The notes: generated by a model from the sequence alone, not told the origin. Shown: positions 1-23,803, counted from the first letter of the stretch. The stretch is 64,000 bases of DNA from Amphiscolops sp. MND2022 (GCA_964187785.1 OZ076409.1:75084001-75148000); one strand, 5' to 3'. A program made the numbers and translations.

Positions 1-645
1 AAACCTTGCAAACTGTCTCAGGAATGCTGTGTGAAATTTTCAGCTCAATCGGACCTAAACTCGGGGAGATATAGCGTTTTTCCGGAGCGGGGGGGTTTCA
101 TTTTTCTAACGGTCCAGCTTATCTTTGCCATTTTTTCGAAAATGCACTCGCCTAAAGGCCTCCCCTGGCCGGTTTTATTCCCAACAAAACCATTTGGCCC
201 TAAATACGGAGTTTCAGCGTTCCAGCATTCCCGGGCGAAAAGTTGTGGGACTTAGAAAAGTTCAAAAATTTTCAAAAAAAATTTTTCCGTTATTTGGGCC
301 CTCAAAGTGGGGGAAGAGACCCCCCAACCAGTAAAGCAAGTGAATGCATGTGGAAAGCCCTTGTTTAGACGAGAAAAATGCCGTTTAGAACGTCTTTTTA
401 TCTTAACTTGACATTGACTTTTGTCGTTTTGAAGGTGACCGTTAGATACGGAAAATTGATGTTTTGAGTATTTATCCCATCTGAAAGCCATTGAGATACA
501 ACATGTTTTGCTCAAAACGTGTTTCATTGCAGTTTCGCTGTCCATTATCACCCTTTGGTGTCTTTTCACGTAATTTTCGTTTCTATAATAACAATTTTTT
601 TGTGTATTTATTCATTTTTTTCTCATCAAATAACTTGAAACAGTT

Positions 646-689
646 GAGTACATTCCATCTCCCTTCCCGGGGGAGATGAGAATGTACTC
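646..689 (+). other. Long internal stem-loop of families A and C (representative copy)
   Basis: GAGTACATTC-CATCTCCC ... GGGAGATG-A-GAATGTACTC: ~18-bp stem with a 1-nt bulge; present in every complete A unit and, degenerate, in C. Confidence 0.9.
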
Positions 690-870
690 GCTAAAGGTCA
701 GGAACTACGGTCTTTATCTTCCACAACACAAAAGGGATTGCAAATGGTTTCAGTTTGTCGCAGAAAATTTCTTTTTGCCCTCTGTGACTCGACAAAATGA
801 ACGTTTCTTACTTACTTTGAAACTCAGCCTACCACAACTCATCTCTAACGTCAGCGCCCCCCTACTTGCA

Positions 871-920
871 TCAACGCCCACCGTCCGTGGGCATGCCGAG
901 GCATGCCCTTCGACGACGTA
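871..920 (+). repeat. Conserved subterminal palindromic box (first of 39 intact or near-intact copies, one per unit end except unit 5)
   Basis: TCAACGCCCACCGTCCGT-GGGCATGCC-GA-GGCATGCCC-TTCGACGACGTA; 9-bp inverted repeat at 889-908, extendable by CGTC/GACG. Confidence 0.95.
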
Positions 921-954
921 TACCAAGATATACCTGGAGCGCGGTAGCCGCTAG

Positions 955-2234
955 GTGGCCGTGTCTTTTCGACGTGCTTTTGCATTGAGGAGTGGGTAGG
1001 GCCCCGCGACGACCTAGAAGAATTGGATGCTCACCGAAACGTGCAGAATTCTACGAGATCTCATAGTTTGAGCCATACGATTTTTCTGAAATTTGGCATG
1101 TGGCCTGGAATTGGTGAGTAGGTAAAACGTGTAGGAGGTAATTTTTCCCAAATTCCATTGTGAGAGGAGATATGGGCAAATAACGGACCCAAAAATGGGG
1201 AAAATGCACTTTTTTCAAGTTTGTCAGCCAATATCTCATTTCCAGGTGCCCGTAGCGTTCCGCACGTGGACATCAATATTGCTCAGCGCTGTTAGAAGAG
1301 TGCGTGGACAAATTTTGGTTCAAATCGGACTGAAACTTGGCGAGAAATTAACGGTTTTTTGGGCGTTTCCGGGGTAAATTTTTTAACGGTCCAGCTTATC
1401 TTTGCCATTTTTTCGAAAATGTACTTGCCTAAAGGCCTCCCCCTGGCCGAATTTCCTCCCAGCAAACCCATTTGGCCCTAAATACGGAGTTTCAGCGTTC
1501 CAGCATTTCCGGGCGAAAAGTTGTGGGACTTAGAAAAATTTCAAAATTTTTCAAAAAATTTTTTTTCCGTTTTCCGCCCCCCCCAGAGGGGAAAAGACCC
1601 CCCAACCAGTATTTTGAGGGATTGCATGTCGAAAGCCCTTGTTTTGACGAGAAAAATACCGTTTAGAACATCTTTTTATTTTAACTTGACGTTGACTAAT
1701 GACGTTTTGAATGTGATGTTTGGACGTGTGAGGCATCTGAAAAGTTGATGTTTTGAGTCTTTATCTCATGTGAAAGCGATTGAGATGCAAGCTGTACTGC
1801 TCAAAACGTCTTTCGTTGTAGTTTTCCAGTGCCGCAATAACCTTTGATGTCATTTGAATATACTTTTCTTCGATATATTAACAATTTTATTGTATTTATT
1901 CCAATTTTTGTTATCTTATAACTCAAAACAGTTGAGTACATTTCATCTCCCTTTCGGGGGAGATGAGAATGTACTCGCTAAAAACCTAGTGCTATTGCGC
2001 CGCAATGATTGCAAAAGTTGTTTTTACTGCTGTTCCACAAGCATTTTTAAACTGACTTTTTTAAAACTATTAATTAACTTAAAGTACATTACTTGAACTT
2101 ACTACTAATACCACCTATCTCTAACGTCAACGCCCCCCTGCTTGCATCAACGCCCACCGTCCGTGGGCATGCCGAGGCATGCCCTTCGACGACGTATGCC
2201 AAATGCCCAGTGCCACGCAGTCTTTTCCCGCTAG
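955..2234 (+). mobile_element. Unit 2, family A subtype A2 (1280 bp)
   Basis: Starts GTGGCCGTGTCTTTTCG, ends TTTTCCCGCTAG; near-identical to unit 20. Confidence 0.7.
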
Positions 2235-3516
2235 GTGGCCGTGTCTTTTCGACGTGCTTTTGCATTGAGGAGTGGGTAGGGCCCCGCGACGACCTAGAAG
2301 AATTGGATGCTCACCGAAACGTGCAGAATTCTACGAGATCTCATAGTTTGAGCCATACGATTTTTCTGAAATTTGGCATGTGGCCTGGAATTGGTGAGTA
2401 GGTAAAACGTGTAAAAGGTAATTTTTCCCAAATTCCACTGTGAGAGGAGATATGGGCAAATAACGGACCCAAAAATGGCAAAAATGCACATTTTTCAACT
2501 TTGTCAGCCAATATCTCTTTTCCAGGTGCCCGTAGCGTTCCGCACGTGGACATCAATATTGCTCAGCGCTGTTGGAGGAGTGCGTGGACAAATTTTGGTT
2601 TAAATCGGACTTAAACTTGACGAGAAATTAACGGTTTTTTGGGCGTTTCCGGGGTAAATTTTTTAACGGTCCAGCTTATCTTTGCCATTTTTTCGAAAAT
2701 GTACATGCCTAAAGGCCTCCCCCTGGCCGAATTTACTCCCAGCAAACCCATTTGGCCCTAAATACGGAGTTTCAGCGTTCCAGCATTCCGGGGCGGAAAG
2801 TTGTGGGACTTGGAAAAATTTCAATTTTTTTTCAAAAATTTTTTTTCCCGTTTTCCGGGCCCCCAATGAAGGGGAACGACCCCCCAACCAGTATTTTGAG
2901 TGAATTCATGTGGAAAGCCCATGTTTGGAGGAGAAAAATGCCGTTTAGCACATCTTTTTATCTTAACTTGACATTGACTTATGACGTTTTGAATGTGATG
3001 TTAGGATATATGAAGCATGTTAAAAGTTGAAGTTTTGAGTCTTTATCTCATCGGAAAACCATTGAGATACAAGCAGTTTTGCTAAAAACGATTTTCATTG
3101 TAGGTTAGCAGAGTATTAGTACACTTTGATGTCATTTGAGTATATTTTTCTTCTATATAATAACTGTTTTTATGTATTTATTCCAATTTATCTCATCTTT
3201 TAACATCAAGCAGTTGAGTACATTTCATCTCCCTTTCGGGGGAGATGAGAATGTACTCGCTAAAAACCTAATGCTATGGCGCCAATGTTTGGATGGGAAG
3301 TTTTCTATGCTTTGAAAAAAGTTATTTTTAATTACTTGATTTTTTAAAACAATAATTAACATGAAGTACATTACTTGCTCCTACTACTACCACCATACAT
3401 CTCTAACGTCAACGCCCCCTGCTTGCATCAACGCCCCATCGTCCGTGGGCATGCCGAGGCATGCCCTTCGACGACGTATGCCAAATGCCCAGTGCCACGC
3501 AGTCTTTTCCCGCTAG
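2235..3516 (+). mobile_element. Unit 3, family A subtype A2 (1282 bp)
   Basis: Same head and terminal tip as unit 2, diverged 3' body. Confidence 0.7.
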
Positions 3517-4788
3517 GTGCCGGTGTATTTTTACACAATGGGGGATGTTGCGCGTGTGGGGAGGGTCCCTGACGCGCTTCCGTGGTTTCGGGTCTTCTAA
3601 CCTATGATAGCGTGACACCTGACTTCGATCTCGTAAACTAGCCGTACGATTTGGCTGAAATTTGGCACACGTACCCCCCTCGGCACGGTGAAGATGATTT
3701 CCTACTGACGTTTTTCCCGCTAAACATTTTTTGTTGACCAAAATAACGGTTTTTGGGGTAAAATTTTCAACTTTTTTTAAATTTCATCTTATATCTCGCC
3801 ACGGGTACACGCTAGCGCTTCCAAATCCTGCTGACGAAAGCTGGCAAACTGTCTGAGGAATGCTGTGTGAAATTTTCAGCTCAATCGGACTCAAACTCGG
3901 GGAGATATAGCGTTTTTCCGGAGCGGGGGGGTTTCATTTTTCTAACGGTCCAGCTTATCTTTGCCATTTTTTTGAAAATGCACTTGCCTAAAGGCCTCCC
4001 CTGGCCGGTTCTATTCCCAGCAAAACCATTTGGCCCTAAATACGGAGTTTCAGCGTTCCAGCATTCCCGGGCGAAAAGTTGTGGGACTTAGAAAAGTTCA
4101 AAAATTTTCAAAAAAATTTTTTCCGTTATTTGGGCCCTCAAAGTGGGGGAAAAGACCCCCCAACCAGTAAAGCAAGTGAATGCATGTGGAAAGCCCTTGT
4201 TTAGACGAGAAAAATGCCGTTTAGAACGTCTTTTTATCTTAACTTGACATTGACTTTTGTCGTTTTGAAGGTGACCGTTATATACGGAAAATTGAAGTTT
4301 TGAGTATTTATCCCATCTGAAAGCCATTGAGATACAACATGTTTTGCTCAAAACGTGTTTCATTGCAGTTTCGCTGTCCATTATCACCCTTTGGTGTCTT
4401 TTCACGTAATTTTCGTTTCTATAATAACAATTTTTTTGTGTATTTATTCATTTTTTTCTCATCAAATAACTTGAAACAGTTGAGTACATTCCATCTCCCT
4501 TCCCGGGGGAGATGAGAATGTACTCGCTAAAGGTCAGGAACTACGGTCTATATCTTCCACAACACAAAAGAGATTGCAAATGGTTTCAGTTTGTCGCAGA
4601 AAACTTCTTTTTGCACTCTGTGACTCGACAAAGTGAACGTTTCTTACTTACTTTGAATCTCACCATACCACAACTCATCTCTAACGTCAGCGCCCCCTAC
4701 TTGCATCAACGCCCACCGTCCGTGGGCATGCCGAGGCATGCCCTTCGACGACGTATAACAAAATATATTCGAACGCGGTAGCTGCTAG
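3517..4788 (+). mobile_element. Unit 4, family A subtype A1 (1272 bp)
   Basis: Starts GTGCCGG, body near-identical to unit 1, conserved box, ends GCGGTAGCTGCTAG. Confidence 0.7.
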
Positions 4789-5858
4789 GTGGTCAAGGGG
4801 GATGCCCATCAGAAAATATTGCGAGGCCGGGGAGGGTCCCGAGAGCCGAGCACATTCTATCAATTCCTACCTTCAGGATTGCGAAGTATTTTAACCGATC
4901 TCGAAATTCACCCGTAGGATTTGTCTGAAACTTTGCATGTGGCTTTATCTAAAAAATTTAAGAATTTTTTTCTTCTGACGTTTTTCCAGGAAAATTCATT
5001 TTGTAGGGTTTTTTTGCGTTTTTTTGGTTTTTTTCATCTTTTTTCATCTTTGATTAATCAATGACCGAATCAAAGGCCATTTCCACCATGAAGGAAAGCC
5101 CGTAGCGGCAAAGTGCACATTTATGAAAATCATCAACGGTCAACGGTCTTTCGAACGGTCCGAAAAAATTTTCCCCCGGGGGAAACCAAAGTGCCGAAAA
5201 GTGCCAAAATTATTTTTTTGACTGAATCACTTTGATCAAATTGATGATTTGAGCAGCCGGAACGGTCCGCACGGTCTCGGACAATAAGGTTAAAAATTGT
5301 CAGCATCCAATGGGGGTTCCAGAAATGTAATTCGTTCACCTGTAGGAGACATCAGAAAAAAGTTGATTTTTTGGGGTATATGTCATTATGAGTGATTGGA
5401 TGAGAAATAATTGTATCACTTTCAGTTGGATATGATGCAGCACAGGAAGCAGCTGCAGCAAACTTGAAACTGATTATGGGGCTGGGGTTTACCCTCTGTA
5501 TCGAGCAAAATAGCCCTAGGGCATAAGTTGTGCCAAAAAATGCCTCAAAGTGATGATTTGGTTATTGCAAATCGATCAGCAAAATTTATTGTCACCGGTG
5601 TTCCGAGAGTTGCGCAGCATCTCGCAGGAACAACGGTGCTTGCTTAGAAAGCAAAAAACCACAAAATCCCTTGAGTTAAGTTGACGGCAGTCACAATAGA
5701 CATTCACTCGTCAGGGTGATGATATTTATCGTTCAATCCCAGAATAACTTACAAAAAATTGCTAGCCTCAATATTTCTTTTTCATACTCCATTAGCAAAG
5801 GTTGCGCTGTTAAGTTTAGGCCTTTTACTAGCAGTGCTCTAAATCGCTCCATCGCTAG
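4789..5858 (+). mobile_element. Unit 5, singleton family E (1070 bp), lacks the GGGCATGCC box
   Basis: Bounded by CTAG|GTG on both sides; keeps the 5' motifs GGGGAGGGTCCC (4829-4840) and GATCTC...TGAAACTTTGCA; body otherwise unique. Confidence 0.65.
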
Positions 5859-7124
5859 GTGCCGGGATTTCCATTCGATAAGGAATTCTGCGCGTGTGGG
5901 TAGGGCCCCTGGCGCGCTCCTGTGTTTTCGGTTTTCCTACTCCTAAATAGGCCCCCTGAATTCCGGGATCTCCTAAACTATCCATACGATTTGGCTGAAA
6001 TTTGGCACACAGCCCCGTTGGAACATTGTAAGAACAAATCCCTACTGACGTTTTGCCCGCTAAACATTTTTTGTTGGTCAAAAATGCAATTTTCCGACAA
6101 AATTTTTGACTTTTTTTCAAGTTACAGTCTATATCTCGTCCCAGGGTTACGCTAGCGGTCCCAAACCCCAGTCGGAAAAGTTCGTAAACTGTCTCAGGAA
6201 TGCGGTGTCAAATTTTCAGGTCAATCGGACTTAAACTCAGCGACTTAGAGCGTTTTTTAGGTGCATTTTTTGACATTTTTTGCGTTTTTCGATTTATCTC
6301 TGCCGTTTTTTGCCCAGATTTTTTTTGAGACACTCTCCTAAAGACCTCCCCTGGCCGGTTTACCTCCCAGCAAAACCATTTGGCCCTAAATACGAAGTTT
6401 CAGCGTTCTAGCATTCCTGGGCGAAAAGTTGTGGGACTTAGAAAAATTTTTTGGGTACGCAAAATGTGTAAAGTCAACTTCAGGCCTCCCAAAGTCAAGA
6501 AACTTCCACACAACTAGTATTGCAAGTGAATGCATGTGGAAAGTACTCGGATAGACAAGAAAAATGAGCTATAGAACGACTCTGTAGCTCAACCTGACGT
6601 TGACTTATGATGTTTTGAATGTGTGCTTGCTAAGGGGTCCGAAACTGAAAATTTTTAAAGAAAATTAATATCGTCAAAAATTCATCGGAATGCCTGCAAT
6701 ATACAGTAGAGCGTGATCAATTGTAGCTGACTAATGCATCAACGCCGTTCAAGGTCTTTTAACTCAGTTTCAAATTTTTTTACACTGTATTATTCATCCG
6801 AGAGCACAAAACAGTTGAGTACATTCCATCTCCCCTCCGTGGGAGATGAGAATGTACTCGCTAAAGTCCAGGTGCTACAGCCCATATTTGTTTTTTTTGC
6901 GGCGCTATTTATGCTAGTGCGCACACGTATTAACTTTTTACCTGATTTTACTTTTGTCAGTACTTTTACTTTGACTTGACATATACTGAACATTATGTCC
7001 TTCTATCATACACATGACTAACGTCAACGCCCCATCCTTGCTTCAACGCCCACCGTCCGTGGGCATGCCGAGGCATGCCCTTCGACGACGTATGCCAAAG
7101 ATATTCCCGAGCGCGTTAGCCTAG
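5859..7124 (+). mobile_element. Unit 6, family A mosaic (1266 bp)
   Basis: A1-like 5' part (AAACTGTCTCAGGAATGC), 3' body like units 10, 11 and 22; box and CTAG end. Confidence 0.7.
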
Positions 7125-8397
7125 GTGGCCGCGTCTTTTAGATGGACTTTTAGCCCTGAGGCGCGGGTAGGGTCCTGCGCCGACCTGGTGAAAATATACT
7201 CCTGGCAAATGGCCCGAATCGGAGACGATCTCAAAACTGGCCCGTACGATTTTCCTGAAAATTTGCATGTGGCCCCCAATTGGCGAGCAATGAAAAAGTG
7301 TAGGAGGTCATTTTCTCCTGGTTTCATTGTGAGACGAGATATATGAAAAAAAATGACCCCAAAATGACGAAATTTTCACTTTTTGACCAAAAATGTGACA
7401 TTATCTCCTCAGACAAGGCTCGGAGCAAAATTTGTCAGAACCCAAACCTGCAGCAGACTGTTAGAGCAGTGCACACAGTAAGTTTGAAGGAAATCGGATA
7501 ATCACATGTGGAGAAATTGACGTTTTTCCGGCGAAATTTTTCGCAAATGCAGTCTATCTCTGCCGTTTTTTGCCCAAAATTTTTCCGAGACCCTCTCCTA
7601 AAGGCCTCCCCTGGCCCATTTTCCTCCCAAAAAAACCATTTGGCCCTAAATACGAGGTTTCAGTGTTGCAGCATTCCCCAGTGAAAAGTTATGGGACTTA
7701 GAACTTTTTCAAAAATTTTCAAAATTTTTCTAAAAAAGATCAGGCCGCCCAAAGTGAAGAAACTTCCACACAACTAGTATTGCAAGTGAATGCATGTGGA
7801 AAGCCCTGCACTTGACGAGAAAAATGCCGTTTAGAACGTCTTTTTATCTTAACTTGATGTTGACTTATGATCTTTTGAGTAGCGTATAACACGTGATCAC
7901 AGTAGTGAAAATCCTAATTTTCAATAATTTTCCAACAATAACGCATGAAAAAAACCTGGAAAAGGTTCCGATGGGTCAATTGGGATGTCTGAAGCATGTG
8001 TACATTCCCGTAGTGTATACTGGATGTATTTGGGACTTATTAGAAATTGTGATACATTTTATACAAGTCTTTGTTTCTCTTAGAATCTTATGCAGTTGAG
8101 TACATTGCATCTCCCTCTCAGGGGAGATGTGAATGTACGTTTGCCAAATGCCTTGTGAAGTGCACATGTTTGATGGACTTAACTAAGTAATCAAGTGTGA
8201 GTCGCGTTTGCCGCATCGCTACAGCAAAAAAAAACTAAAACTTTAGTCAGATTGAATGGTTTTTGTCGTTAGTGTTTCTTCTTGTATAGCCGACTTCCAC
8301 ATCCAATTATCAACGCCCACCGTCCGTAGGCATGCCGAGGCATGCCTTTCGACGACGTATGCCAAATACCCAATGCCACACAGTCTTTCCCCGCTAG
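7125..8397 (+). mobile_element. Unit 7, family A subtype A3 (1273 bp)
   Basis: Starts GTGGCCGCGTCTTTT; close relative of unit 35; box variant AGGCATGCC-GA-GGCATGCCT. Confidence 0.7.
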
Positions 8398-10384
8398 ATG
8401 GGCGGGGGTAATTCCCCTTCAAAAAATTCGGCCGGCGGGTTGGGTCCTGCCGGACGTCAAATAGTGTGAAACATCCAGTAGGAAACGGCGACATAAATCA
8501 GCGATTTTAAAATTTAACCGTTAGAATTCGGACTTGGAGTGCATGCGGCCCCAAAATTCCCATACGAATCGAAGTTCCTGCTGACGTTAAGCGATAAAAA
8601 CATTTTATAAAAAGTTATGGCCCATTTTACGTTCACCTATGAGGGTAAAATGAGGAAAATTTTTACAAAGTCGCTGATAACTCAAAATACATTGTTTTTT
8701 GGCTTTTGACTGTGAAACAAGCTTATAACCTTCATTTCGTGGCTGTGGCATTGCACTGAACACAAAAGATGTAAAGTTTTTACATTTTTCGAAAATTCGA
8801 CATTTTTGATTTTTTTTTCACTACTATCAGTACACTATATGTCAAAAACACCTCTGAAAAAGTTTTTTATTTGCTTTAAATTGGAAACCTTGGTATCCAT
8901 GGTTTCTGTCGGAATCTACTCGCTGCCAAACACCCAACAGTTTGCATCCAATGTGAATTTAAAATTTTTTTCGAGGTCATAAGGGTTTCACAAGGTTTTC
9001 ATAACATAGTATTAAACTACAAACTGGTCATTTTCAACATAATATCTTTGTCGAGGCATGTCGGATATAGTCCTATTGCTCACGAACGGTCCTACTGGCA
9101 ACGTAATAACCATTTATAGAAATGTAAAGTTATAAAAAAAATTTTTCACCCGGTCTTCAGTCATTTTTCAGTCATTCGGAACTTAACTTAGAAAAATTTC
9201 GACCAAAATATCCATTTTTTGTCAGGTCGAAAAATCAAATTCAGATTTTTAAGCAAAATTATTAACTCTGACGTAACCCATGGGGCTCATGATACTCAAA
9301 ACAACGATTGACACTGGTATCAATGGCTCCAATAACATATGAGTCGCGATAAGACGTTATTTTGAGCATTACGTCTCAATTGAGGTAAAGATCTCGCAAG
9401 CCAGCGATCACTGTGAAATGTAATTTCATCAAAAATTTACTCTTTTTTGTCAATCACTATGTGCACAGAATGCGTAGGGTGCGTTTCAGCACTATAATGA
9501 GGTTTTTGAAGGCATCGAGTTGCTCAAGGGGTGGTATGAGACACTTTTGTCCCATATACTACTGTATTTTCCAAAATTTTTAGCCCAATATCTGGAAATA
9601 CAAACTTGACAAAATACTTTCAACTACTTTATTCAAAGGTTACAATATAGATGAACACTGTGGTTGATCAGAAACTTTCATCTCTTTCGTTTTCCGAAAT
9701 ATTTCCCTTCGCATGTGTTACATTCGTAGCAGAAAAAAAAATCGAAACTGAAAAATACGCAATTTTGCTAATATAGAATCGCAATGATTGTGCCTAAAAA
9801 CTCTTTAAACACTTCTAACGCAACCTTACGCACCCAAAATGATCGAAAATGCTATTCACAATGGTGACATGTGCTCTTTCTACGATCCTGGCTGGACAAG
9901 GTTTGCATATTTTTCAAGTACCTGTCAGCTAAATCTTGTGATAGCCTTTTCAGTTGGCCTTGTGTCAACTTGGGAAGGCTATCACATCAAAAAACCATCA
10001 ACAAAAATAATTTTTGTTTATTGGATCTTACAGTCGATACTTTTTTTCGTGATTCTATACTACCGTTAGTAAATTTCCTCAGGTCACCTTACGATTGCAT
10101 TCAGTCTTTGATAAAAACCTCTGAACTCAAAGTCACATTTTTATATTTTTTTGCCAAAAAATAACATCAAAAATATCTAAAATATATAAAATAGAGTCTT
10201 TAACATTTTTACGTTTCAAGTTTTTGCCGTTATTAGGTCAATCAACGTCCTAGAGCCACGCTCTCTGTCATACTGTACAACGCCACATAGTGTTTCGACG
10301 TTCACAGTCTGTGGGCATGCCGAGGCATGCCCTTCGACGACGTATGCCGAATACCGCGGGCCTACGCCCGCGCTCCCCGGCTAG
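8398..10384 (+). mobile_element. Unit 8, singleton family F (1987 bp)
   Basis: Starts ATGGGCG (only non-GTG start); unique AT-rich body; conserved box, then perfect hairpin CGCGGGC-CTAC-GCCCGCG (10355-10372) 12 nt before the end of the terminal CTAG. Confidence 0.7.
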
Positions 10385-13300
10385 GTGGTCAGTGCTGTTG
10401 CGTTCATTTTTTTCCGGCCGTGGGGGAGGGCCCCTCTGAGGCCGGTCATTTTTCAGGTAACAGCTTTCCTATACAAAAAAGGGGGAAAAAACCTCAGTGC
10501 TCAAATCCCAACCGTCAGAATGAGCTGAAATTTGGCATGTAGCTAGTGCATTGCAAATGATTAGGATGGGTTATAACGCTATGTTTGGCAAAATTGGTTT
10601 TGTTGCATTTTTTTTGTCATATAGGGCCAAAAATGGCCTTTTTTGCGTATTTTTTGCTTGACTAGCTAATAACTCGCGTTGGGTTGGTACTAGCGATACG
10701 GGTGTGGGGTATGGAATTGTAAGAATACCAAGTACCTTGCTGATCACGTTATTTGATTTCCGCCCACATCACCCCCCACGCCGGAAATGCCCAATTTGTC
10801 ACTACCGGTCGCAATTTTTGACTTTTTTGGATGGAGTCAAAACCCATTTCCGGTGTGAAGGAGTGGGTTGAGCGCTTCGACCCCAATATACTAAAAGTAG
10901 GTTTAGACAAAGTCCTATTAGGAAAAAAGTAATGTAAGCCCGTACCTATCACCCCCTCACCGGAAATAGGGGTCACGCCTCCTTTTTCTGTGTTGCAAAA
11001 GTGGCATGTGCACATTTGTCCAACTCCGAAGCCCCGGAGCACTGTGGGACCCTCATACTTTCTAAACACCTATCCCACACGCTACCGGAAGTGACCGGAA
11101 GTTTCACCGGAAATGACATCCTTGGACCGGAAATGGTCAAAAAAGGACTTTTTCAATAAAAAATAGACACTTTTGGTGCAATTTTTAGGCAAAAAGCATA
11201 ATTCGTGATACGCTTGTTGCAGTTGAAAGGGCCATTGTTCAGCAAGAATGCATACAGCATTACGTAGCACATCAAGTGGTTGATAATTTTTCGTCCATAA
11301 TATCCATAGGACCGGAAATGGCCATTTTTGAATCGGAAATTTCTTCAGCTTGATTTTTAACAAGTTTTTCCACAATATTAGTGTAGGAATTGCTCGTCGG
11401 ATGCTTTAGGTCTATTTTAAAACTAGCTGACTGCTTCTTAGAAATGTATTTCAGAAATCCCAACCAATTCCAGATTACCGGAAATGGGAGTAATTGCCTC
11501 CTTTATGACCTTTGAATGATAAATTGTTAAAATCCGCAAATTATTTTATTCCACAACTGTTGCTCAGGTTATATCTAAGCAATAACATCTGCTTGTTTTG
11601 AAGTGCTGTATTGTGGGAGATACAAATATTGCTTTTTAATAGTAATACATACGTGATATTCGCCGCAAAAAAGATTTTTCAAATCAACCATTTTGAAGTC
11701 CTACTGGTGTTCCGCACACCCGAAATAATTTAAGTTTCTAGTTTCGATTTTCAGGCTTCCGCGACTATTGAGTTGAGATGATAGTTTTCACGTTCTCTGC
11801 AAAACGGGCATTTCATTGTGTATGTGACATTTATTGGGTTGTTTCACATGGTAATTCAAAACTAATTGATCATACAATTTAGAACAATTGAAAATTTTCA
11901 ATTGAACAATAAATGTTTTAATATTTTCTCTTTCGTTAAAGATACTCTTTTGTGGCCATTAGAACAGGTTGAATTGGTTGAATAAGTAACCAGTGCGATA
12001 CATCGTTTAATACATAGCGTTTGACATCGTTTTCTTGCGAACAAAGACAAGCATGATTTGTTGGAAGTTTTTACCATATCGCTTCAAATCGGTCGTGACA
12101 AACAATGAATTTCTCGTTTTAATTGCTACTTCGAAAGCAGCCTGAAAACGCAAATCGATCTATTGAGTTATGGAGATGCAACTAAGCATTTCAAGTCTGG
12201 GTTTCAATTTAATTCTATCACTCCGGACTATTTTTATGTCGCAAAAGTGATAAAGGGTGTTAGCAAGGTTAAAAACATCGAACAATTTTAAAAAATTAAT
12301 GCCTCCGGAAAGGGAAGAAAAATGAGTTTTCCTGTCAAAACAATGACAACCACGTACGAAACATCAAGTATTTGTATTGTTCAATAGTCCAAAACATTAA
12401 TGAAGTTTTTAAATATCCAAGAGTTTCTAATCAAGCATGCGTTTCGAATGTCTCACAGGGCAGCATCGTTTTCAAAAAACAGTGCTTTCAATGTGGTTTC
12501 ATACCAGCAAAACGAACGCAGGCACAACCACATTCTCAAAATTCTTGCACAACAACCAATTTCTTTGAAAATCCTATTTGATTCCTCAAGGTATATGGTG
12601 AGAACCCTGTTGGGTTCCAAAGTTGATGTGCTGTTTTCTTGGGTTTGCGAGATAAGTTACAACGGAAATCTGAAAGCAGGTCGTCTCAATAAAATACCTG
12701 TTGCTCTTTAAACGATTGGACTTAAGTAGTCGAAATTTATTCTCAGACACTTTCGATCAGAGAATGTTTGAGTCCTAACGTTCGAATCAGGTTGGTTTCA
12801 GGTGGCTCGAAGTGCCAGCTGAACCAACCTTTCAAATAAAGAAAAACCCCACACCTCCCTTCATGCCACGCTACCCCGTATAGCGTTTCAACTTGACAGA
12901 AATTGGAACGTTTGATTTTGGCGTCGCTTGGGATTGACACACCAGTGTTGATACTAAATTTGGCAAAGAGAAATCGCAGAAATGATTGTTTCTGTTTTTC
13001 CCTTTGATTTAGTGTGTCGAGCGTACAAAGCAGTTTGGGAAACTAACTTGCATTTCCACTGAACGAAAAGCAAAAGTAGTAACATTGAAAACTTCCGGAA
13101 TAAATTTAATCAGGTTTCCGTATTTGTGAGATCAGCTGCCACTCAGTTATCAGTTACATCTTTCAAATTTTTAAGAACAACTAATCTAACTTTGCTCGAC
13201 TCTCTTGGATAAGGCAACAATAGTTTACTAATCTGTACTCGTGGAAAAAAGTCAACTGCCGGGTGAAAAACAATCTGTATGTAACTTTTCTCTCGTGCAA

Positions 13301-13458
13301 AGTTATTTTTTACCCCCTCTGACTCAACTATAGCATGTACGTAATGAAACCAATAACACCTTCAACTGTTAATCAACGCCCACCGTCCGTAGGCATGCCG
13401 AGGCATGCCTTTCGACGACGCGCGCCAAAAACAATATAACGGCGCCACCCGCTTCTGG
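10385..13458 (+). mobile_element. Unit 9, family D (3074 bp)
   Basis: Starts GTGGTCAGTGCTG, ends GCTTCTGG; full-length homology to units 30 and 31. Confidence 0.7.
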
Positions 13459-14762
13459 GTGGCCACGACCATGGTTTCTTGCGTATCTTGTCGAATCTTT
13501 TGTCGTTGCCGGCCGGGGAGGGACCCGTTTGCCGGCGTGTGTAGTGTGGGGCCCCCATACCCAAAAAGTGGTATTTTTTTCAGAGATCTCAAAATCGGCC
13601 CGTCAGAATTGCCTGAAATTTGGCATGATGCTCCCAATTGGGGAAAAAATAAGAAGTGTAGGAGGCGACTTGTTCGGGTAAATATTGTATGTTGACTTTT
13701 GGCCAAAATAGTGTTCCCCCCCAACATGGGCAAAATCACATGAGGTGTAAAAATATGATCACAACTTTTGAACCTTTGGATTTAGGGGTACGGTCGTGGA
13801 CCACATTAAGCAAGAGCTTTGGTGAGCGGGTAGGATAGATGGGTTTTGATCCCAGTACCTTCAACCACTTTTGAGAAATTAACGTTTCAAACAAACATCC
13901 GGGAGGTATCTGTTGCCCCTGAAGGCAGGTTTTTCGCCATTTTCAATGTGAAGGAGTGGGTTTAGCGTAACGTGTGTGGGGTGCTTTTTTGTTGCCCGTG
14001 TGCGGAGCGTTGTATAGAGGTGCTGGTTGTTGAAATTGGAAAAGCTGCTAAAAAGTTATACCTATACCCCCCCTACTGTCTCTGCCATTCAATTTTTTTT
14101 TCAACTTCAGGCCTCCCAAAGGTGAGAAACTTCCACACAACTAGTATTGCAAGTGAATGCATGTGGAAAGTACTCGGATAGACGAGAAAAATGAGCTATA
14201 GAACGACTCTGTAGCTTAACCTGACGTTGACTTATGACATTTTGAGTGTGAGCTTGCTACGAGAGAAAAAAATTTAAAATTGAAAATCGAAGCTAAGTCT
14301 CATCCAAAACTCATCGAAATACGTTCAATCCATACCAAAGCGGTCAAACTCCAGCTATATAGTGCAACAACACTATTCAAGACCATTTGACACAATTTTA
14401 TTAGTTTTGACATTGTATTATTCATCCGAGAGCACAAAACAGTTGGGTACATTCCATCTCCCTTTCGGGGGAGATGAGAATGTACCCGCTAAATGACACG
14501 CACCATGGCCTAATTTTTACCTTTATGCGACGTTTTCTAGGCTTTCGCGCAAGCCCACTAATATTTAGACTGGTTTCTTTTTCTTTCACTCCAAACATTC
14601 CGTCCGTACTAACCACCTTACACACCACCAGCAGCTCAACGACACATCTGTAACGTCAACGCCACATACTCGCATCAACGCCCACCGTCCGTGGGCATGC
14701 CGAGGCATGCCCTTCGACGACGTATGCCCGTTGTCACAACAGGGCGCCCCTACATTCTCTAG
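13459..14762 (+). mobile_element. Unit 10, family A mosaic with unique 5' half (1304 bp)
   Basis: Starts GTGGCCACGACC; 3' half like unit 11; terminal hairpin GCCCGTTGT-C-ACAACAGGGC before CTAG. Confidence 0.7.
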
Positions 14763-16043
14763 GTGCCGGGATTTTCTATTCGATAAAGTAAGTTGCGCGG
14801 TTGGGTAGGGCCCCGTGAGCGCGCCCGTGTCTGTGTTTTTTGAACCTGAATTTGCGGGTGCCAAAATAGACGATCTCCTAAACTATCCATACGATTTTGC
14901 TCAAATTTGGCATACGGGTTCCTGAGACAGATATAAGAACTAATTCCTACTGGCGTTTTGCCCGGAAAATTTTTTTTGTTGCGCAAACTTGAAATTTTTG
15001 ACAAAAAAATGCGATTTTTTTTGAAAAAATTTTTTTGAGAGGCCATATCTTTTTTCAGGGAGCCCGGAGCGGGACGCGTTAAACTGATTATAAACTCTAC
15101 GGTTCACGGGCTGTACGGGGAACCTATTTTTGTTGGAATCCGACTTGTAGATTTTGAGATATATTATCAAATTTGGGTGTTTTTTTTCCAATTTTTCGAA
15201 AAACCTGGTTTATCTCTGCCGTTTTTTGCCCAGATTTTTTTCTAGACCCTCTCCTAAAGGCCTCCCCTGGCCGGATTACGTCCCAGCAAAACCATTTGGC
15301 CCTAAATACGAAGTTTCAGCGTTCTAGCATTCTCGGGCGAAAAGTTGTGGGACTTAGAAAATTTTTTTTTAAAACGCAAAATGTGTAAAGTCAACTTCAG
15401 GCCTCCCAAAGTCAAGGAACTTCCACACAACTAGGATTGCAAGTGGATGCATGTGGAAAGTGCTTGAATAGACGAGGAAAATGAGCTATTATAAAACTCT
15501 GTAGCTTAACCTGACGTTGACTTATGACAATTTTAGTGTGAGCTTGCTATGTGAGAAAAAATTTCAAAAATTGAAAATCGAAGCTAAGTCTCATCCAAAA
15601 CTCATCGGAATACGTTCAATCCATTCCAAAGCGGTTTACTTCCAGCTATAGACTGCAGCAACACTATTCAAGACCATTGTACCCCTTTATATTAGTTTTG
15701 ACATTGTATTATTCATCCGAGAGCACAAAGCAGTTGAGTACATTCCATCTCCCTTTCGGGGGAGATGAGAATGTACTCGCTAAAGAACAGGTACTACAGC
15801 CAATTTTTGTATTTATGCGAAGCCATTCTTTGCTATTGCACATAACAACTATGCTATTGACTTAATTTTGCCTACACTTTGCTATGACATATGCTAAACG
15901 TTTGGTCCTTACAACAACATACACATGACTAACGTCAACACCACATACTGTTACCAACGCCCACCGTCCGTGGGCATGCCGAGGCATGCCCTTCGACGAC
16001 GTATGCCAAATACCTTCCAGCGACGCTCGCGCTCCCCGGCTAG
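14763..16043 (+). mobile_element. Unit 11, family A mosaic (1281 bp)
   Basis: Middle module CCCGGAGCGGGACGCGTTAAACTG shared with unit 16; body like unit 6; ends CGCGCTCCCCGGCTAG like unit 8. Confidence 0.7.
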
Positions 16044-17329
16044 GTGCCGGGATTTCTATTCGATAAAGTATGTGGCGCGTGTGGGTAGGGTCCCTGGCGC
16101 GCTCTTGGGTATGGTGTTCACCAGCTAGGAAATAGGGGTCGATTTTTCGGGATCTCCTAAACTAGCCACACGATTTGGCTGAAATTTGGCACACGTACCC
16201 CCCTCGGCACGGTGAAGATGATTTCCTACTGACGTTTTTCCCGCAAAATTTTTTTTGTTGTCCAAAATAACGGTTTTTGGGGTAAAATTTTGAATTTTTT
16301 TTAAATTTTATCTTATATCTCGCCACCGGTTTACGCTAGCGCTTGAAAACCCTGCTAAAGAAAGCTTGCAAACTGTCTCAGGAATGCGTTGTGAAATTTT
16401 CAGCTCAATCGGACTTAAACTCGGGGAGATATAGCGTTTTTCCGGAGCGGGGGGGTTTCATTTTTCTAACGGTCCAGCTTATCTTTGCCATTTTTTCGAA
16501 AATGCACTCGCCTAAAGGCCTCCCCTGGCCAGTTTTATTCCCAGCAAAACCATTTGGCCCTAAATACGGAGTTTCAGCGTTCCAGCATTCCCGGGCGAAA
16601 AGTTGTGGGACTTAGAAAAGTTCAAAAATTTTCAAAAAATTTTTTTTCCGTTTTCCGCCCTCCCCCCCTAGGGGAAAAGACCCCCCAACCAGTAATTTGA
16701 GTGAATTCATGTGGAAAGGCCATGTTTAGAGGAGAAAAATGCCGTTTAGAACGTCTTTTTATTTTAACCTGTCGTTGACTTATAACGTTTTGAAGGTGAT
16801 GTTTGGAGGTGTGAAGCACGTGAAAAGTAAACGTTATGAGTATTTATCTGATCTGAAAGCCATTGAGATGCAATCTGTTTTGCTCAAAACGTAATTCATA
16901 TCCGTTTGGTAGTCAATCAACACCCTTTGTTGTCATTTGACATCTTTTTTTGTTGATATAAGAAAAAATTTTGTGTATTTATTCATTTTTTTCTCATCAA
17001 ATAACTTGAAACAGTTGAGTACATTCCATCCCCCCCTTCCGGGGGAGATGAGAATGTACTCGCAAAAAGCACCGAACTACGGCCCTTACCTTCCCGAGCT
17101 ACGCAGTATAAGGATTACATATTGGTTCCGACATTTTCTAGAGTTAAATCTTGGTAATCTGTCTGGATATGCAGAAAAATCAGCACGTGCCTTTTAATAC
17201 CAAGTTGCTTACAACGACAATTATTTTATATCAACGCCCCCATATTTATCAACGCCCCCCGTCCGTGGGCATGCCGAGGCATGCCCTTCGACGACGTATA
17301 CCAAGATATGTTCGAGCGCGTTAGCCTAG
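16044..17329 (+). mobile_element. Unit 12, family A subtype A1 (1286 bp)
   Basis: GTGCCGGGATTTCTATTCG head, hairpin, box, ends GCGCGTTAGCCTAG. Confidence 0.7.
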
Positions 17330-18619
17330 GTGCCGGTATTTCTATTCGTTCGAGTATGTGGCGCGTGTGGGTAGGGCCCCTGGCGCGCTCTTGTGTTTGG
17401 GGGTTTCCTACTTCTAAATCACGTTCAGATTTCCGGGATCTCGTAAACTATCCATACGATTTGGCTGAAATTTGGCACACGTACCCCCCTCGGCACGGTG
17501 AAGATGATTTCCTACTGACGTTTTTCCCGCTAAACATTTTTTGTTGACCAAAATAACGGTTTTTGGTGGAAAATTTTTGATTTTTTTTAAATTTTATCTT
17601 ATATCTCACCACGGGTCCACGCTAGCGCTTCCAAACCTTGCTGACGAAACCTCGCAAACTGTCTCAGGAATGCTGTGTGAAATTTTCAGCTCAATCGGAC
17701 TTAAACTCGGGGAGATATAGCGTTTTTCCGGAGCGGGGGGGTTTCATTTTTCTAACGGTCCAGCTTATCTTTGCCATTTTTTCGAAAATGCACTCGCCTA
17801 AAGGCCTCCCCTGGCCGGTTTTACTCCCAAAAAAACCATTTGGCCCTAAATACGGAGTTTCAGCGTTCTAGCATTCCGGGGCGAAAAGTTGTGGTAATTA
17901 GTAAATTTCAAAAATTTTCAAAAATTTTTTTTTCGTTATTTGGGCCCCCAAAGTGGGGGAAAAGACCCCCCAACCAGTAATTTGAGTGAATTCATGTGGA
18001 AAGGCCATGTTTAGCGGCGAAAAATGCTTTTTAGATCGTCTTTTTATTTTAACCTGTTGTTGACTTATGTTGTTTTGAAGGTGATGTTTGGATGTGTGAA
18101 GCATGTGAAAAGGTAATTTTTTGTGTCTTTATCTCTTCTAAAAGCCATTGAGATGCAATCTGTTTTGCTCAAAACGTAATTCAATGCAATTTGGCAGTCA
18201 ATGAACACAATTTGGTGTCTTTTGTTATATTTTTCTGTTGATATAATAAAAAATTTTGTGTCTTTATTAATTTTTTTTAAATAAAATAACTTGAAACAGT
18301 TGAGTACATTCCATCCCCCCCTTCCGGGGGAGATGGAAATGTACTCGCTAAAAGCCGCGAACAAGAGCCCATACCTTCCTGCGCTACGCAGTATAAAGAT
18401 TGCATGTTGGTTCCGACTTTTTGGTAGTGTTATATCTTGGTAATTTGACTGAATATGGAGAAAAATCAGCAAGTGCTCTTTTATAGCAAATTGCTGACAA
18501 CGACAATTTTTTTATATCAACGCCCCCATATTTATCAACGCCCCCCGTCCGTGGGCATGCCGAGGCATGCCCTTCGACGACGTATACCAAGATATACTCC
18601 CGAGCGCGGTAGCCGCTAG
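17330..18619 (+). mobile_element. Unit 13, family A subtype A1 (1290 bp)
   Basis: Near-identical to unit 39. Confidence 0.7.
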
Positions 18620-19889
18620 GTGCCGGGATTTTCTATTCGACAAGTTTGCGCGCCTTGGGGAGGGTCCCTTTGCGCGCTTTAAGATCCAGGTGTTTCCAAC
18701 TCCTAAACGGGCATGTGATTTCGACGATCTCCTAAACTAGCCATACGATTTGGCTGAAATTTGGCACACGTACCCCCCTCGGCACGGTGAAGATGATTCC
18801 CTACTGACGTTTTTCCCGCTAAACATTTTTTGTTGACCAAAATAACGGTTTTTGGGGTAAATTTTTGAACTTTTTTTAAATTTCATCTTATATCTCGCCA
18901 CGGGTACACGCTAGCGCTTCCAAACCTTGCTGACGAAAGTTTGCAAACTGTCTCAGGAATGCTGTGTGAAATTTTCAGCTCAATCGGACTCAAACTCGAG
19001 GAGATATAGCGTTTTTCCGGAGCGGGGGGGTTTCATTTTTCTAACGGTCCAGCTTATCTTTGCCATTTTTTCGAAAATGCACTCGCCTAAAGGCCTCCCC
19101 TGGCCAGTTTTATTCCCAGCAAAACCATTTGGCCCTAAATACGGAGTTTCAGCGTTCCAGCATTCCCGGGCGAAAAGTTGTGGGACTTAGAATTTTTCAA
19201 AAATTTTCAAAAAAATTTTTTTCCGTTATTTGGGCCCCCAAAGTGGGGGAAAGCACCCCCCAACCATTAAAGCAAGTGAATGCATGTGGAAAGCCCTTGT
19301 TTAGACAAGAAAAATGGCGTTTAGAACGTCTTTTTATCTTAACTTGACATTGACTTTTGTCGTTTTGAAGGTGACCGTTAGATACAGAAAATTGATATTT
19401 TGAGTATTTATCCCATCTGAAAGCCATTGAGATACAACATGTTTTGCTCAAAACGTGTTTCATTGCAGTTCCGCTGTCTATTGACACCCTTTGATGTCTT
19501 TTGACGTAATTTTCTTTTCTATAATAACAATTTTTTGTGTATTTATTCATTTTTTTCTCATCAAATAACTTGAAACAGTTGAGTACATTCCATCTCCCTT
19601 CCCGGGGGAGATGAGAATGTACTCGCTAAAGGTCAGGAACTACGGTCTATATCTTCCACAACACAAAAGCAATTGAAAATTGTTTCAGTTTGTTGCAGAA
19701 AACTTTTCTTTTTGCACTCAGTGACTCGGCAAAGTGAACGATTTTGACCCATATTGAATCTTACTTTACCACAACTCATCTCTAACGTCAACGCCCCCCA
19801 CACACATCAACGCCCCCCGTCCGTGGGCATGCCGAGGCATGCCCTTCGACGACGTATAGCAAAATATGTTCGAACGCGGTAGCAGCTAG
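18620..19889 (+). mobile_element. Unit 14, family A subtype A1 (1270 bp)
   Basis: 3' body like units 1 and 4; box; ends GCGGTAGCAGCTAG. Confidence 0.7.
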
Positions 19890-21177
19890 GTGCCGGGATT
19901 TCTATTCGATAAAGTATGTGGCGCGCCTTGGGTAGGGTCCCTTGCGCGCTCTTGGGTATGGTGTTCACCAGCTAGGAAATAGGGGTCGATTTTTCGGGAT
20001 CTCCTAAACTAGCCACACGATTTGGCTGAAATTTGGCACACGTACTCCCCTCGGCACGGTGAAGATGATTTCCTACTGACGTTTTTCCCGCAAAATTTTT
20101 TTTGTTGTCCAAAATAACGGTTTTTGGGGTAAAATTTTGAACTTTTTTTAAATTTCATCTTATATCTCGCCACGGGTTTACGCTAGCGCTTCTAAACCCT
20201 GCTAAAGAAAGCTTGCAAACTGTCTCAGGAATGCGGTGTGAAATTTTCAGCTCAATCGGACTTAAACTCAGGGAGATATAGCGTTTTTCCGGAGCGGGGG
20301 GGTTTCATTTTTCTAACGGTCCAGCTTATCTTAGCCATTTTTTCGAAAATGTACTCGCCTAAAGACCTCCCCTGGCCGGTTTTATTCCCAGCAAAACCAT
20401 TTGGCCCTAAATACGGAGTTTCAGCGTTCCAGCATTCCCGGGCGAAAAGTTGTGGGACTTAGAAAATTTCACAAATTTTCAAAATTTTTTTTTTCGGTTT
20501 TCCGCCCTCCCCCCCGAGGGGAAAAGACCCCCCAACCAGTAATTTGAGTGAATTCATGTGGAAAGGCCATGTTTAGAGGAGAAAAATCCCGTTTAAATCG
20601 TCTTTTTATCTTTATTCAACGTTGACTTATGACGATTCGAAGGTTATGTTTGGAGGTGTGAAGCACGTGAAAAGTTAACGTTATGATTATTTATCTGATC
20701 TGAAAGCCATTGAGATGCAACCTGTTTTGCTCAAAACGTAATTCATATCAATTTGGTAGTCAATCAACACCCTTTGTTGTCATTTGACATCTTTTTTTGT
20801 TGATATAAGAAAAAATTTTGTGTATTTATTCATTTTTTTCTCATCAAATAACTTGAAACAGTTGAGTACATTCCATCCCCCCTTCACGGGGGAGATGAGA
20901 ATGTACTCGCAAAAAGCCCCGAACTACGGCCCTTACCTTCCTGAGCTACGCAGTATAAAGATTGCATATTGGTTCCGACATTTTGATAGAGTTATATCTT
21001 GGTAATCTGTCTGGGTATGCAGAAAAACCAGCACGTGCTTTTTTATACCAAGTTGCTCACAACGACATTTATTTTATATCAACGCCCCCATATTTATCAA
21101 CGCCCCCCGTCCGTGGGCATGCCGAGGCATGCCCTTCGACGACGTATACCAAGATATGTTCGAGCGCGTTAGCCTAG
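19890..21177 (+). mobile_element. Unit 15, family A subtype A1 (1288 bp)
   Basis: Body near-identical to unit 38 but with a different ~130-nt head. Confidence 0.7.
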
Positions 21178-22491
21178 GTGCCCGGATTTCTATTCATTAA
21201 AGTATGTTGCGCGTGTGGGTAGGGCCCCTGGCGCGCTCTTGTGTCCCTGTTCTCATAACTGCAATTTCCGGCAGCATTCTGAGCGATTTTCTAAACTATC
21301 CATACGATTCGGCTGAAATTTGGCATGTGAGTTCCTATGACAGTTCTAAGAAACATTTCCTACTGGCGTTTTGCCCGGAAAATTTTTTTTGTTGACTTAT
21401 AACGGTTTTTTTGGCCAAAAAATGCAATTTTTTCAAAAATTTTTTTTTCGGAGCCCATATCTTTTTTCAGGGTGCCCGGAGCGGGACGCGTTAAACTGAT
21501 TATAAACTCTACGGTTCATGGGCTTTACGGAGAACCTAGGCTCGTTTCGATCAGACAAATAGTCTTGGAGATATAACGGCATTTTTTGGGAATTTTTTGA
21601 AAATTTTTCTAACGGTCCAGCTTATCTTTGCCATTTTTTCGAAAATGTACTCGCCTAAAGACCTCCCCTGGCCGGTTTTAATCCCAGCAAAACCATTTGG
21701 CCCTAAATACGGAGTTTCAGCGTTCCAGCATTCCCGGGCGAAAAGTTGTGGGACTTAGAAAAATTTCAAAATTTTTCAAAAAAATTTTTTCCGTTTTCCG
21801 CCCTCCCCCCGAGGGGAAAAGACCCCCCAACCAGTAATTTGAGTGAATTCATGTGGAAAGGCCATGTTTAGAGAAGAAAAATGCCGTTTAGATCGTCTTT
21901 TTATTTTAACCTGTCGTTGACTTATGTTGTTTTGAAGGTGATGTTTGGATGTGTGAAGCATGTGAAAAGGTAATTTATTGTGTCTTTAGCTCTTCTAAAA
22001 GTCATTGAGATACACGGTGTGTGACTCAGAACGTGTTTAATTCTAATTTAGCAATGCATCAACACTTTTTTGTGTCTTTTGACTCTGTTTTAAAAAATTT
22101 TTCCGACTAAAATCAAAAATTATTTATAATTATTCACATTTTTTTTCTGATCTCATGACTCGAAACAGTTGAGTACATTCCATCTCCCTTCACGGGGGAG
22201 ATGAGAATGTACTCTTTAGAGACCAGGTACTACAGTAATTACCTTCCCCGAGCAACGCCCCATAAAAATTGCGTTTTGATCCAGATATTTTGACATAATT
22301 TTATCTTTGTAATTTGACTGGAAATGAAGAAAATGCCGCACGTGCTCTTTTATATCAAGTATCTTAACAACGCCATCTCTTTTACGTCAACGCCCCATAG
22401 TTCACATCAACGCCCACCGTCTGTGGGCATGCCGAGGCATGCCCTTCGACGACGTATGCCCAAGATATACATCGAGCGCGGTAGCCGCTAG
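21178..22491 (+). mobile_element. Unit 16, family A mosaic (1314 bp)
   Basis: Head as in units 36 and 38, middle as in unit 11, then A1-type body. Confidence 0.7.
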
Positions 22492-23803
22492 GTGCCGGGA
22501 TTTCTATTCGATAAAGTATGTGGCGCGTGTGGGTAGGGTCCCTGGCGCGCTCTTGGGTATGGTGTTCACCAGCTAGGAAATAGGGGTCGATTTTTCGGGA
22601 TCTCCTAAACTAGCCACACGATTTGGCTGAAATTTGGCACACGTACCCCCCTCGGCACGGTGAAGATGATTTCCTACTGACGTTTTTCCCGCAAAATTTT
22701 TTTTGTTGTCCAAAATAACGGTTTTTGGGGTAAAATTTTGAATTTTTTTTAAATTTTATCTTATATCTCGCCACCGGTTTACGCTAGCGCTTCAAAACCC
22801 TGCTAAAGAAAGCTTGCAAACTGTCTCAGGAATGCGGTGTGAAATTTTCAGCTCAATCGGACTTAAACTCGGGGAGATATAGCGTTTTTTCGGAGCGGGG
22901 GGGTTTCATTTTTCTAACGGTCCAGCTTATCTTTGCCATTTTTTCGAAAATGCACTCGCCTAAAGGCCTCCCCTGGCCGGTTTTATTCCCAGCAAAACCA
23001 TTTGGCCCTAAATACGGAGTTTCAGCGTTCCAGCATTCCCGGGCGAAAAGTTGTGGGACTTAGAAAAGTTCAAAAATTTTCAAAAATTTTTTTTCCGTTT
23101 TCCGCCCTCCCCCCCTAGGGGAAAAGACCCCCCAACCAGTAATTTGAGTGAATTCATGTGGAAAGGCCATGTTTAGACGAAAAAATTGCCGTTTAGAACG
23201 TCTTTCTATCTCAACCTGACATTGACTTATGAAGCTTTAAAGGTGATGTTTGGACGTGTGAAGCATGTAAAAAAAGGAATTTTTTTGATTTTATTTCATC
23301 AGAAAGTCATTGAATCACACGCTGTGAAGCCCAGAGCGTGGTTTCTAATAATTTGGTATCGTTTAAACGCATTTTGGTGTCTTTTTACTCTATTTAAAAA
23401 ACTTTGCTCCTGAAAATTAGTAAAATTTTGATTACTTTTCTTACTTTCCATTAATTTTTTTTCTTATATTTTTACTTGAAACAGTTGAGTACATTCCATC
23501 TCCCTTCCCGGGGGAGATGAGAATGTACTCGCAAAAAGCCGCGAACTACGGCCCATACCTTCCCGAGATACGCAGTATAAAGATAACATAATGGTCCAGA
23601 CATTTTAATGGAGTTGTATCTTGGTAATATGTCTGGATTTGAAGAAAAATCAGCACGTGCCATTTTATACCAAGTTGCTCGCAACGACAATTAATTTAAA
23701 TCAACGCCCCCCACAAAAATCAACGCCCCCCGTCCGTGGGCATGCCGAGGCATGCCCTTCGACGACGTGCACCAAAATATGCCCCGAGCGCGTTAGCAGC
23801 TAG
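22492..23803 (+). mobile_element. Unit 17, family A subtype A1 (1312 bp)
   Basis: 5' half near-identical to unit 12, distinct 3' half; box and CTAG end. Confidence 0.7.

Follow-up and report, generated by a model that had tools for sequence, protein, structure and literature searches.

Helitrons of the Helitron1 type end at their 3' terminus in CTRR, as set out in the accessible text of PMC11417382. In the bat Helitron Helraiser, according to the available portions of two reports, the left end is required and the hairpin terminator can be bypassed (PMC4778049), and circles carry precise end-to-start junctions that are cleaved on the top strand (PMC5876387). Tandem Helitron arrays, as far as the accessible text of their descriptions goes, consist of one family or of internal minisatellites (PMC12001565; 10.1101/2021.06.02.446622; PMC13404089; 10.1101/2025.11.06.686955), and plant-centromere tandem Helitrons are cited within PMC13404089. 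In the portions available, the terminal direct repeats of Cryptons are thought to be the recombination substrate (PMC3212892), and integron integrases are described as exchanging one strand and resolving the product by replication, (PMC4792948), which gives a one-bond crossover. Here we describe a 64,000-nucleotide (nt) stretch of Amphiscolops sp. MND2022 (GCA_964187785.1 OZ076409.1:75084001-75148000), referred to below as the window, that is filled by a mixed head-to-tail array of non-coding units. These units move one at a time with precise ends, share one orientation and conserved terminal structures, and are joined to one another within the four letters GGTG.

The 64-kb window is made up solely of 41 co-oriented units, of which 39 are complete with lengths of 1070-3074 nt, and these were grouped by us into ~14 families (Table 1). 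The units are joined by 40 junctions of the form CTRG/RTG, where the slash separates the end of one unit from the start of the next. The word CTRGRTG has 45 matches in the window compared with 16.0 +/- 4.2 in 100 shuffles; the 41 matches on the + strand comprise the 40 junctions and one further match at 8020, which lies inside unit 7 without flanking motifs and was left out of all junction counts. The junctions hold 34 distinct tail-head combinations. Among the unit pairs with at least 97.5% identity (n=14), 13 differ in their neighbor on at least one side, and only the pair formed by units 13 and 39 has neighbors of >0.9 identity on both sides; another pair, units 24 and 33, has the same downstream neighbor. 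Units 24 and 29 show 0 differences over 2178 nt, yet their neighbors differ on both sides. Segmental duplication as the origin of the junction variety was rejected in view of these neighbors. The units move singly, and both of their ends are precise.

Such an array could also arise under an HUH enzyme without targeting, if scattered Helitron-like elements whose target is short and generic (e.g. RG or CTRG/GTG) piled up, or if rolling-circle concatemers were reworked by unequal exchange. Same-family neighbors are indeed in excess (13/40 junctions vs 4.6 in shuffles, p = 5e-5, using our own family labels), which indicates that the array is shaped as well by unequal exchange, by temporal bursts or by re-insertion nearby. 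Several units resemble patchworks of their relatives, and tandem Helitron arrays generated via rolling-circle replication are described in the accessible text of PMC12001565 and 10.1101/2021.06.02.446622. However, different families meet at 27/40 junctions, the units contain 249 internal CTRG sites and yet no full unit is nested in another, and homologous exchange cannot create new tail-head pairs via 4-7 shared letters. We consider untargeted accumulation quite unlikely, and insertion of the elements into their own junctions highly probable.

The variety of junctions allows the joint itself to be located. An earlier note on this DNA had claimed that the third base of CTRG travels with the upstream unit and the base after the invariant G apparently with the downstream unit, and had taken this to map the joint to about one nucleotide. 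The bases that it reported were recovered: CTAG at 8394-8397 followed by ATG at 8398-8400, where unit 7 meets the singleton unit F; GTG after unit 35, a relative of unit 7; and the ends of the D units. With positions counted from the slash, the 40 junctions read C40, T40, A37/G3 and G40 from -4 to -1, and G39/A1, T40, G40 and G25/C15 from +1 to +4. The upstream claim held, with position -2 linked to the upstream unit at 4 informative junctions, all from family D: the 3 D units all end in CTGG whatever comes next (13455, 46645, 49715), and their starts are preceded by CTAG (10381, 43573) as well as CTGG (46645). The per-position linkage count that the earlier note had suggested, carried out here on the window junctions, also placed a downstream bound at +4, beyond the linkage it had claimed. 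Position +4 is constant in 26/26 junctions across 8 head groups (same 14 nt from +5 on) despite differing tails, and both G and C occur at +4 within 5 of 8 tail groups (same last 10 nt before CTRG). Because related units lie next to each other, a pairwise comparison is ambiguous at this position (identity of 1.00 in 41 same-downstream pairs vs 0.96 in 51 same-upstream pairs), and the explicit groups were used instead. Upstream linkage at -2 and downstream linkage at +4 thus place the joint inside G-GTG, at one of five possible bonds, and F is not needed for this result. That the joint lies within GGTG is all but certain.

Narrowing the joint further, to a bond beside the G at -1, relies on position +1, which varies only once among the 40 junctions, in the A at 8398, at the border with the singleton F. 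This A may be characteristic of family F, may be peculiar to unit 7 or may have arisen later by mutation. F has no close relative in the window, where its best partner covers 5% of its length and its homology to other units is confined mainly to the first ~220 nt and the last ~110 nt. At conserved terminal sites F deviates at 5/52, unit 7 at 0/51 and the 37 other scored units at 12/1841 (the scoring leaves out units 1, 5 and 41, and a single paired change common to the D copies makes up 6 of the 12). Since F deviates more than unit 7 at these sites, the A more likely belongs to F. F does not look decayed, because its 3' palindrome is intact and its head hairpin keeps 8 pairs at the usual distance. 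A head of F truncated at the 5' end by 4 nt was rejected, because the hairpin sits at the usual 39 nt.

Three observations count against the one-nucleotide mapping. About 1 private change is expected by chance in 160 core site-copies (1.17 with a rate inflated by a 1-nt indel shift in unit 3, ~1.0 when corrected); unit 7 itself differs from unit 35 by substitutions in 105 of 1273 columns (~92% identity); and a junction outside this assembly, in the metagenomic locus L001, has a private change at a column that is elsewhere invariant (CGAG/GTG). A second copy of F was found neither in the window nor in the metagenome scan, the viral-contig and genome-contig scans or the phage BLAST: the five viral-contig scans gave 0 matches and the phage BLAST with F returned no match. 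One genome-contig scan gave 0 matches, and five bacterial loci from another were rejected as chance 19-mers without a BLAST match to any unit. With a flat prior, a rough likelihood sketch for the one-G claim spanned 0.27-0.88; a Helitron-leaning prior moved this to 0.56-0.96, and the outcome varied with whether F was taken as a divergent family or as a decayed copy. Downstream linkage of +1 is plausible, in that F deviates more than unit 7, although it is seen at one junction of a singleton. The four-letter core is firm; the narrowing to one G that the earlier note drew from that single junction is probable.

The earlier note had further held that so sharp a joint fits an HUH nick better than a tyrosine recombinase. 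Linkage at -2 and +4 does rule out the canonical identical overlap of 6-8 bp. The choice of HUH does not follow, given Cryptons and integrons: a sharp joint alone neither identifies the enzyme nor excludes tyrosine recombinases. Crypton-like non-autonomous elements, or an integron-like single-strand variant, might form circles that recombine with junctions via GGTG, the A at 8398 being a later mutation or tolerated by one-strand exchange. In the accessible text, Cryptons carry direct repeats of 4 or 6 bp and no terminal inverted repeats (TIRs) (PMC3212892), comparable to the firm 4-nt core and lack of TIRs here, and integron integrases recombine folded single strands with 3-bp microhomology (PMC4792948). 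Co-oriented mixed cassettes are, moreover, a hallmark of integron chemistry. Nevertheless, no sequence-conserved inverted binding sites flank the core, with -5 and +5 varying freely, and a rolling-circle terminator accounts better for the CTRR ends and for a unit that lacks the 3' block (unit 5). Judged by eye, the core might pair with that block, but F and 10 units with C at the column in question break the pairing, and guide pairing of this type is not supported. A tyrosine recombinase thus appears unlikely to us.

A serine recombinase with a 2-bp core, or another DNA chemistry acting on GG, GT or TG of the core, would also agree with the sharpness of the joint: a 2-bp overlap fits within GGTG, and IS607 has a GG core. 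With a core of GG or GT, however, the A at 8398 must have arisen by later mutation, hairpins conserved in structure would remain unexplained, and no such enzyme was seen in the window. An IS607-like route has, in our estimation, very little probability.

Better support for a single-strand reaction comes from the CTRR form of the unit ends (40/40 in the window) together with a head hairpin that stays paired although its sequence varies. The hairpin motif starts 37-41 nt from the junction in 33/34 scored units, the remaining one being unit 10 at 56 nt, and the 6 C units carry, at about the same position in the head, a hairpin whose sequence is unrelated. The outer stem of the head occurs in several different sequences, and three stem pairs of F are altered on both sides relative to unit 7. 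Stems of at least 5 bp were formed by the unit's own arms in 12/15 cases, compared with 17/180 for arms mixed between stem classes, which were set by us. In a 14-row head alignment 76.8% of cells pair vs 66.7% when shuffled (2/500 shuffles as high), and the covariation score is 0.334 vs 0.211 (5/500 as high). This conservation of shape points to a single strand as the form that is recognized, and the G.T pairs, which number 15/163 on the + strand and 0/141 on the - strand, no more than suggest which of the two it is. In the head of unit 10 (13459-13530), the extra stretch can fold as a small stem.

At the other end, a near-invariant 3' block is present in 39/40 unit ends, and its central 16 nt stop 45-58 nt short of the unit end; this spacing is looser than the tight one between head and hairpin. 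In L001, unit 7 and the 3 D units, one G-C pair of the block's palindrome is replaced by A-T. Unit 5, with a normal head and a CTAG end, is without the block and yet is joined precisely to the next unit; it may use a cryptic terminator or belong to a family whose end is different. A decayed second block lies ~240 nt before the end, ahead of a fresh one, in 4/6 C units (units 24, 29, 32 and 33; 33989, 43307, 51639 and 53813). No TIRs were found, the longest exact head-tail inverted match being 5-7 nt (9 units). Most families have two or three short direct repeats of the CAACG type 60-130 nt before unit ends (e.g. 7018-7050), upstream of the 3' palindrome, which are possible protein-binding repeats. 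An internal hairpin of the 20-bp class is kept in A-like units and in L001 (563-609), with a strong fold (z about -6 to -11 vs shuffles) and a variable loop; a variant lies ~470 nt before the end in C units. The search pattern for this hairpin was not matched in F, D, B or unit 5, although it also missed the C variant.

An RNA route, by stacking of introner-like or retro-elements, was also weighed, prompted by the terminal dinucleotides; hairpins suit RNA as well as single-stranded DNA. GT...AG bounds 35/39 complete units, and AG/GT at 36/40 junctions resembles zero-length exons; introners derive from Helitrons and Cryptons among others, according to the accessible text of PMC12130899. On the other hand, D ends in GG in 3 copies with different neighbors and F starts with AT, the donor consensus is absent after +3, and the tails are barely pyrimidine-rich (0.58 vs 0.52). 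No poly(A), 5' truncation or Rfam match was found, and split direct repeats of the DIRS/Ngaro type were absent from the 11 units tested. An RNA origin is thus very unlikely. If the array is part of a transcript, splicing could in principle remove most units.

We favor the view that the units are non-autonomous elements, probably Helitron-like and mobilized by an HUH enzyme, whose circles insert at existing end-to-start junctions; taken as a whole, this statement has in our judgment an even chance of being correct. Of its parts beyond self-targeting, a single-strand intermediate is likely and an HUH enzyme is somewhat favored. The case for HUH rests on the CTRR ends, the structure-conserved hairpins and the unit with a non-standard 3' end, and not on the sharpness of the joint. 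In the proposed cycle, a Helitron-like HUH endonuclease acting in trans would nick after the CTRG upstream of the head hairpin, the hairpin most likely positioning this initiating nick. One strand would then be copied out as far as the next CTRG behind the 3' block, which most likely serves as terminator, and the copied strand would close into a circle with the joint CTRG/RTG. The incoming circle strand would finally be joined into a chromosomal end-to-start junction resembling its own joint. Because such a junction looks the same as the circle joint, the enzyme that opens the circle would be expected to nick the chromosomal junction as well, and because every insertion regenerates two target junctions, a mixed array would grow.

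Several findings weigh against this proposal. The units start with GTG or ATG rather than TC, and the palindrome lies 45-58 nt from the end rather than about 11. The window contains no solo copy and no array end that would speak for exclusive self-targeting. Integron integrases, too, rely on the recognition of hairpins. The head-hairpin structure was derived from the same 14 rows on which it was tested, and pairs changed on both sides are not above shuffles (5 vs 4.5; 272/500). The + strand exceeds shuffles in stability by only -0.62 +/- 1.18 kcal/mol (10/16), and the G.T bias of the 3' block is opposite (1/188 vs 12/215). No transposase gene was found in the window, where the longest start-to-stop open reading frame (ORF) is 135 aa, and Pfam gave 0 matches above cut-off in the 15/40 stop-to-stop ORFs of 8398-14762 that were scanned, F included. 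Lastly, L001, the sole outside junction, has CGAG instead of CTRR.

Other annotation was likewise negative: Rfam had no match at the gathering score in the window and none in 4700-16100 at E values up to 1, and ARAGORN returned 0. The metagenome scan yielded 1 related locus, L001, which is not a copy of F. Its junction (880-886) is accompanied by both terminal structures and the internal hairpin, and the system therefore exists outside this assembly.

Table 1. Coordinates of the array, selected units, junctions and terminal structures in the window (all on the + strand)
Feature	Position	Strand	Remarks
Whole array	1..64000	+	41 units, 39 complete, ~14 families; both array ends outside the window
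Unit 5 (1070 nt)	4789..5858	+	Normal head and head hairpin; CTAG end; without conserved 3' block
Unit 7 (1273 nt)	7125..8397	+	~92% identical to unit 35
Internal hairpin (20-bp class)	8096..8142	+	~260-280 nt before the end in 1.3-kb A-like units
3' block of unit 7	8311..8360	+	Palindrome with 9-bp arms at 8328-8347
Junction unit 7 / F	8394..8400	+	CTAG/ATG; sole junction of 40 with A at +1
4-nt core	8397..8400	+	GGTG in 39/40 junctions; bounds the joint
Unit F (1987 nt)	8398..10384	+	Singleton family
Head hairpin of F	8432..8453	+	8-bp stem with one G.T pair, 6-nt loop; 39 nt from junction
3' block of F	10296..10345	+	Palindrome intact; 4 private changes in upstream part
Junction F / D	10381..10387	+	CTAG/GTG; tail of F does not carry the A
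D unit 1 (3074 nt)	10385..13458	+	CTGG at end; CTAG before start
D unit 2	43577..46648	+	CTGG at end; CTAG before start
D unit 3	46649..49718	+	CTGG at end; CTGG before start
Unit 35	55458..56729	+	Relative of unit 7; followed by GTG

The composition of the array shows further structure. Families are clustered, with runs of 1.29-kb A-type units (16044-23803 and 56730-64000) on either side of a central stretch of B, C and D units (23804-55457). Units 16 and 17 (21178-23803) and unit 26 (35647-37829) look like patchworks in which the best partner shifts along the length, and this suggests recombination within units as well. C units combine a B-like first half (about 130-1005) with an A-like second half (about 1100-1943) and a new end. 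In unit 21, a B unit, an extra 282-nt segment (28078-28359), the start of which repeats the sequence after it, is apparently an internal tandem duplication. CpG depletion is absent (observed/expected 0.83-1.13, 15 units).

The literature searched, which left out most subscription journals, Repbase and supplements, yielded no account of such a mixed array with junction targeting in a eukaryote; absence from print is not established by this. If the elements do target their own junctions, they would combine a safe-harbor strategy with a route from transposon to complex satellite, a route for which no report on eukaryotic rolling-circle elements was found in that same literature. The mixed junctions constitute a natural mapping experiment for cut site and enzyme. 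The one-nucleotide mapping matters less here, as it refines the cut site and leaves the chemistry undecided. If the proposal is true, scarless insertion of 1-3-kb units at a hairpin plus a 4-7-nt word would make the enzyme of interest as a tool.

Among described systems, the array shares with Helitron1 (HLE1) the CTRR 3' end, a terminal palindrome, the lack of TIRs and of target duplications, precise end-to-start junctions and signs of a loose 3' end. It differs in starting with GTG (39) or ATG (1) instead of a 5' TC, in a palindrome core 45-58 nt from the end instead of ~10-12 nt, in an extra head hairpin, and in units lying between G and G (39/40) or G and A (1) rather than at A/T. The combination of a strict start with a looser CTRR end resembles Helraiser, as far as the accessible text of PMC4778049 describes it. 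Unlike in the tandem Helitron arrays of the accessible descriptions, full-length units of ~14 families are joined precisely here. Helitron2/Helentron elements (HLE2) such as FoHeli, in the available portions of PMC5148889 and PMC11417382, likewise have hairpins near both ends, self-insertion and multiple termini; the present units have neither the 12-17-nt terminal inverted repeat of HLE2 (longest match 5-7 nt, 9 units) nor its T/T target. By the definitions accessible in those two sources, the system works like a non-autonomous Helitron and is not a member of HLE1 or HLE2.

Replitrons, in the accessible text of PMC10288648, are similar in HUH copy-and-paste movement, in a right-end hairpin and in Replitron-1's left end, which directly follows RG, as does every head here. 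Unlike them, the array shows neither fuzzy ends nor target duplications, and apart from the shared core it lacks a clear direct repeat at the termini; the window holds no Y1 Rep, and stacking is not described in that text. Inside an array, the shared 4-7-nt core has the same look as a short terminal direct repeat. A likeness exists also to IS200/IS605 and to IS91, which, in the descriptions available, has a tetranucleotide target at one end.

Cryptons, as covered by the accessible part of PMC3212892, resemble the units in lacking TIRs, in a proposed circular intermediate and in a 4-6-bp common terminal word. In a test for such a word, GGTG was common to 39/40 junctions, with no TIR, and was broken by F. 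Structure-conserved hairpins and mixed self-targeted arrays are not described in that part, and the window holds no recombinase. Bacterial integron cassette arrays, in the available portion of PMC4792948, are alike in their co-oriented cassettes of many kinds added singly, their sharp crossover and their hairpin recognition. They differ in that the present units have no genes, the window has no integrase or attI, and the host is probably a eukaryote, judging from 64 kb of non-coding repeat with neither prokaryotic nor viral matches; a consistent attC-like pairing partner for the core was not seen by eye. Tentatively, and with less than even confidence, we suggest a eukaryotic integron-like system, in which an undescribed single-strand transposase or recombinase would have the end-to-start junctions of its own clients as main target, cut beside one G, read the head hairpin by shape and build multi-family arrays of tens of kb, with cassette order as a record of insertion history.

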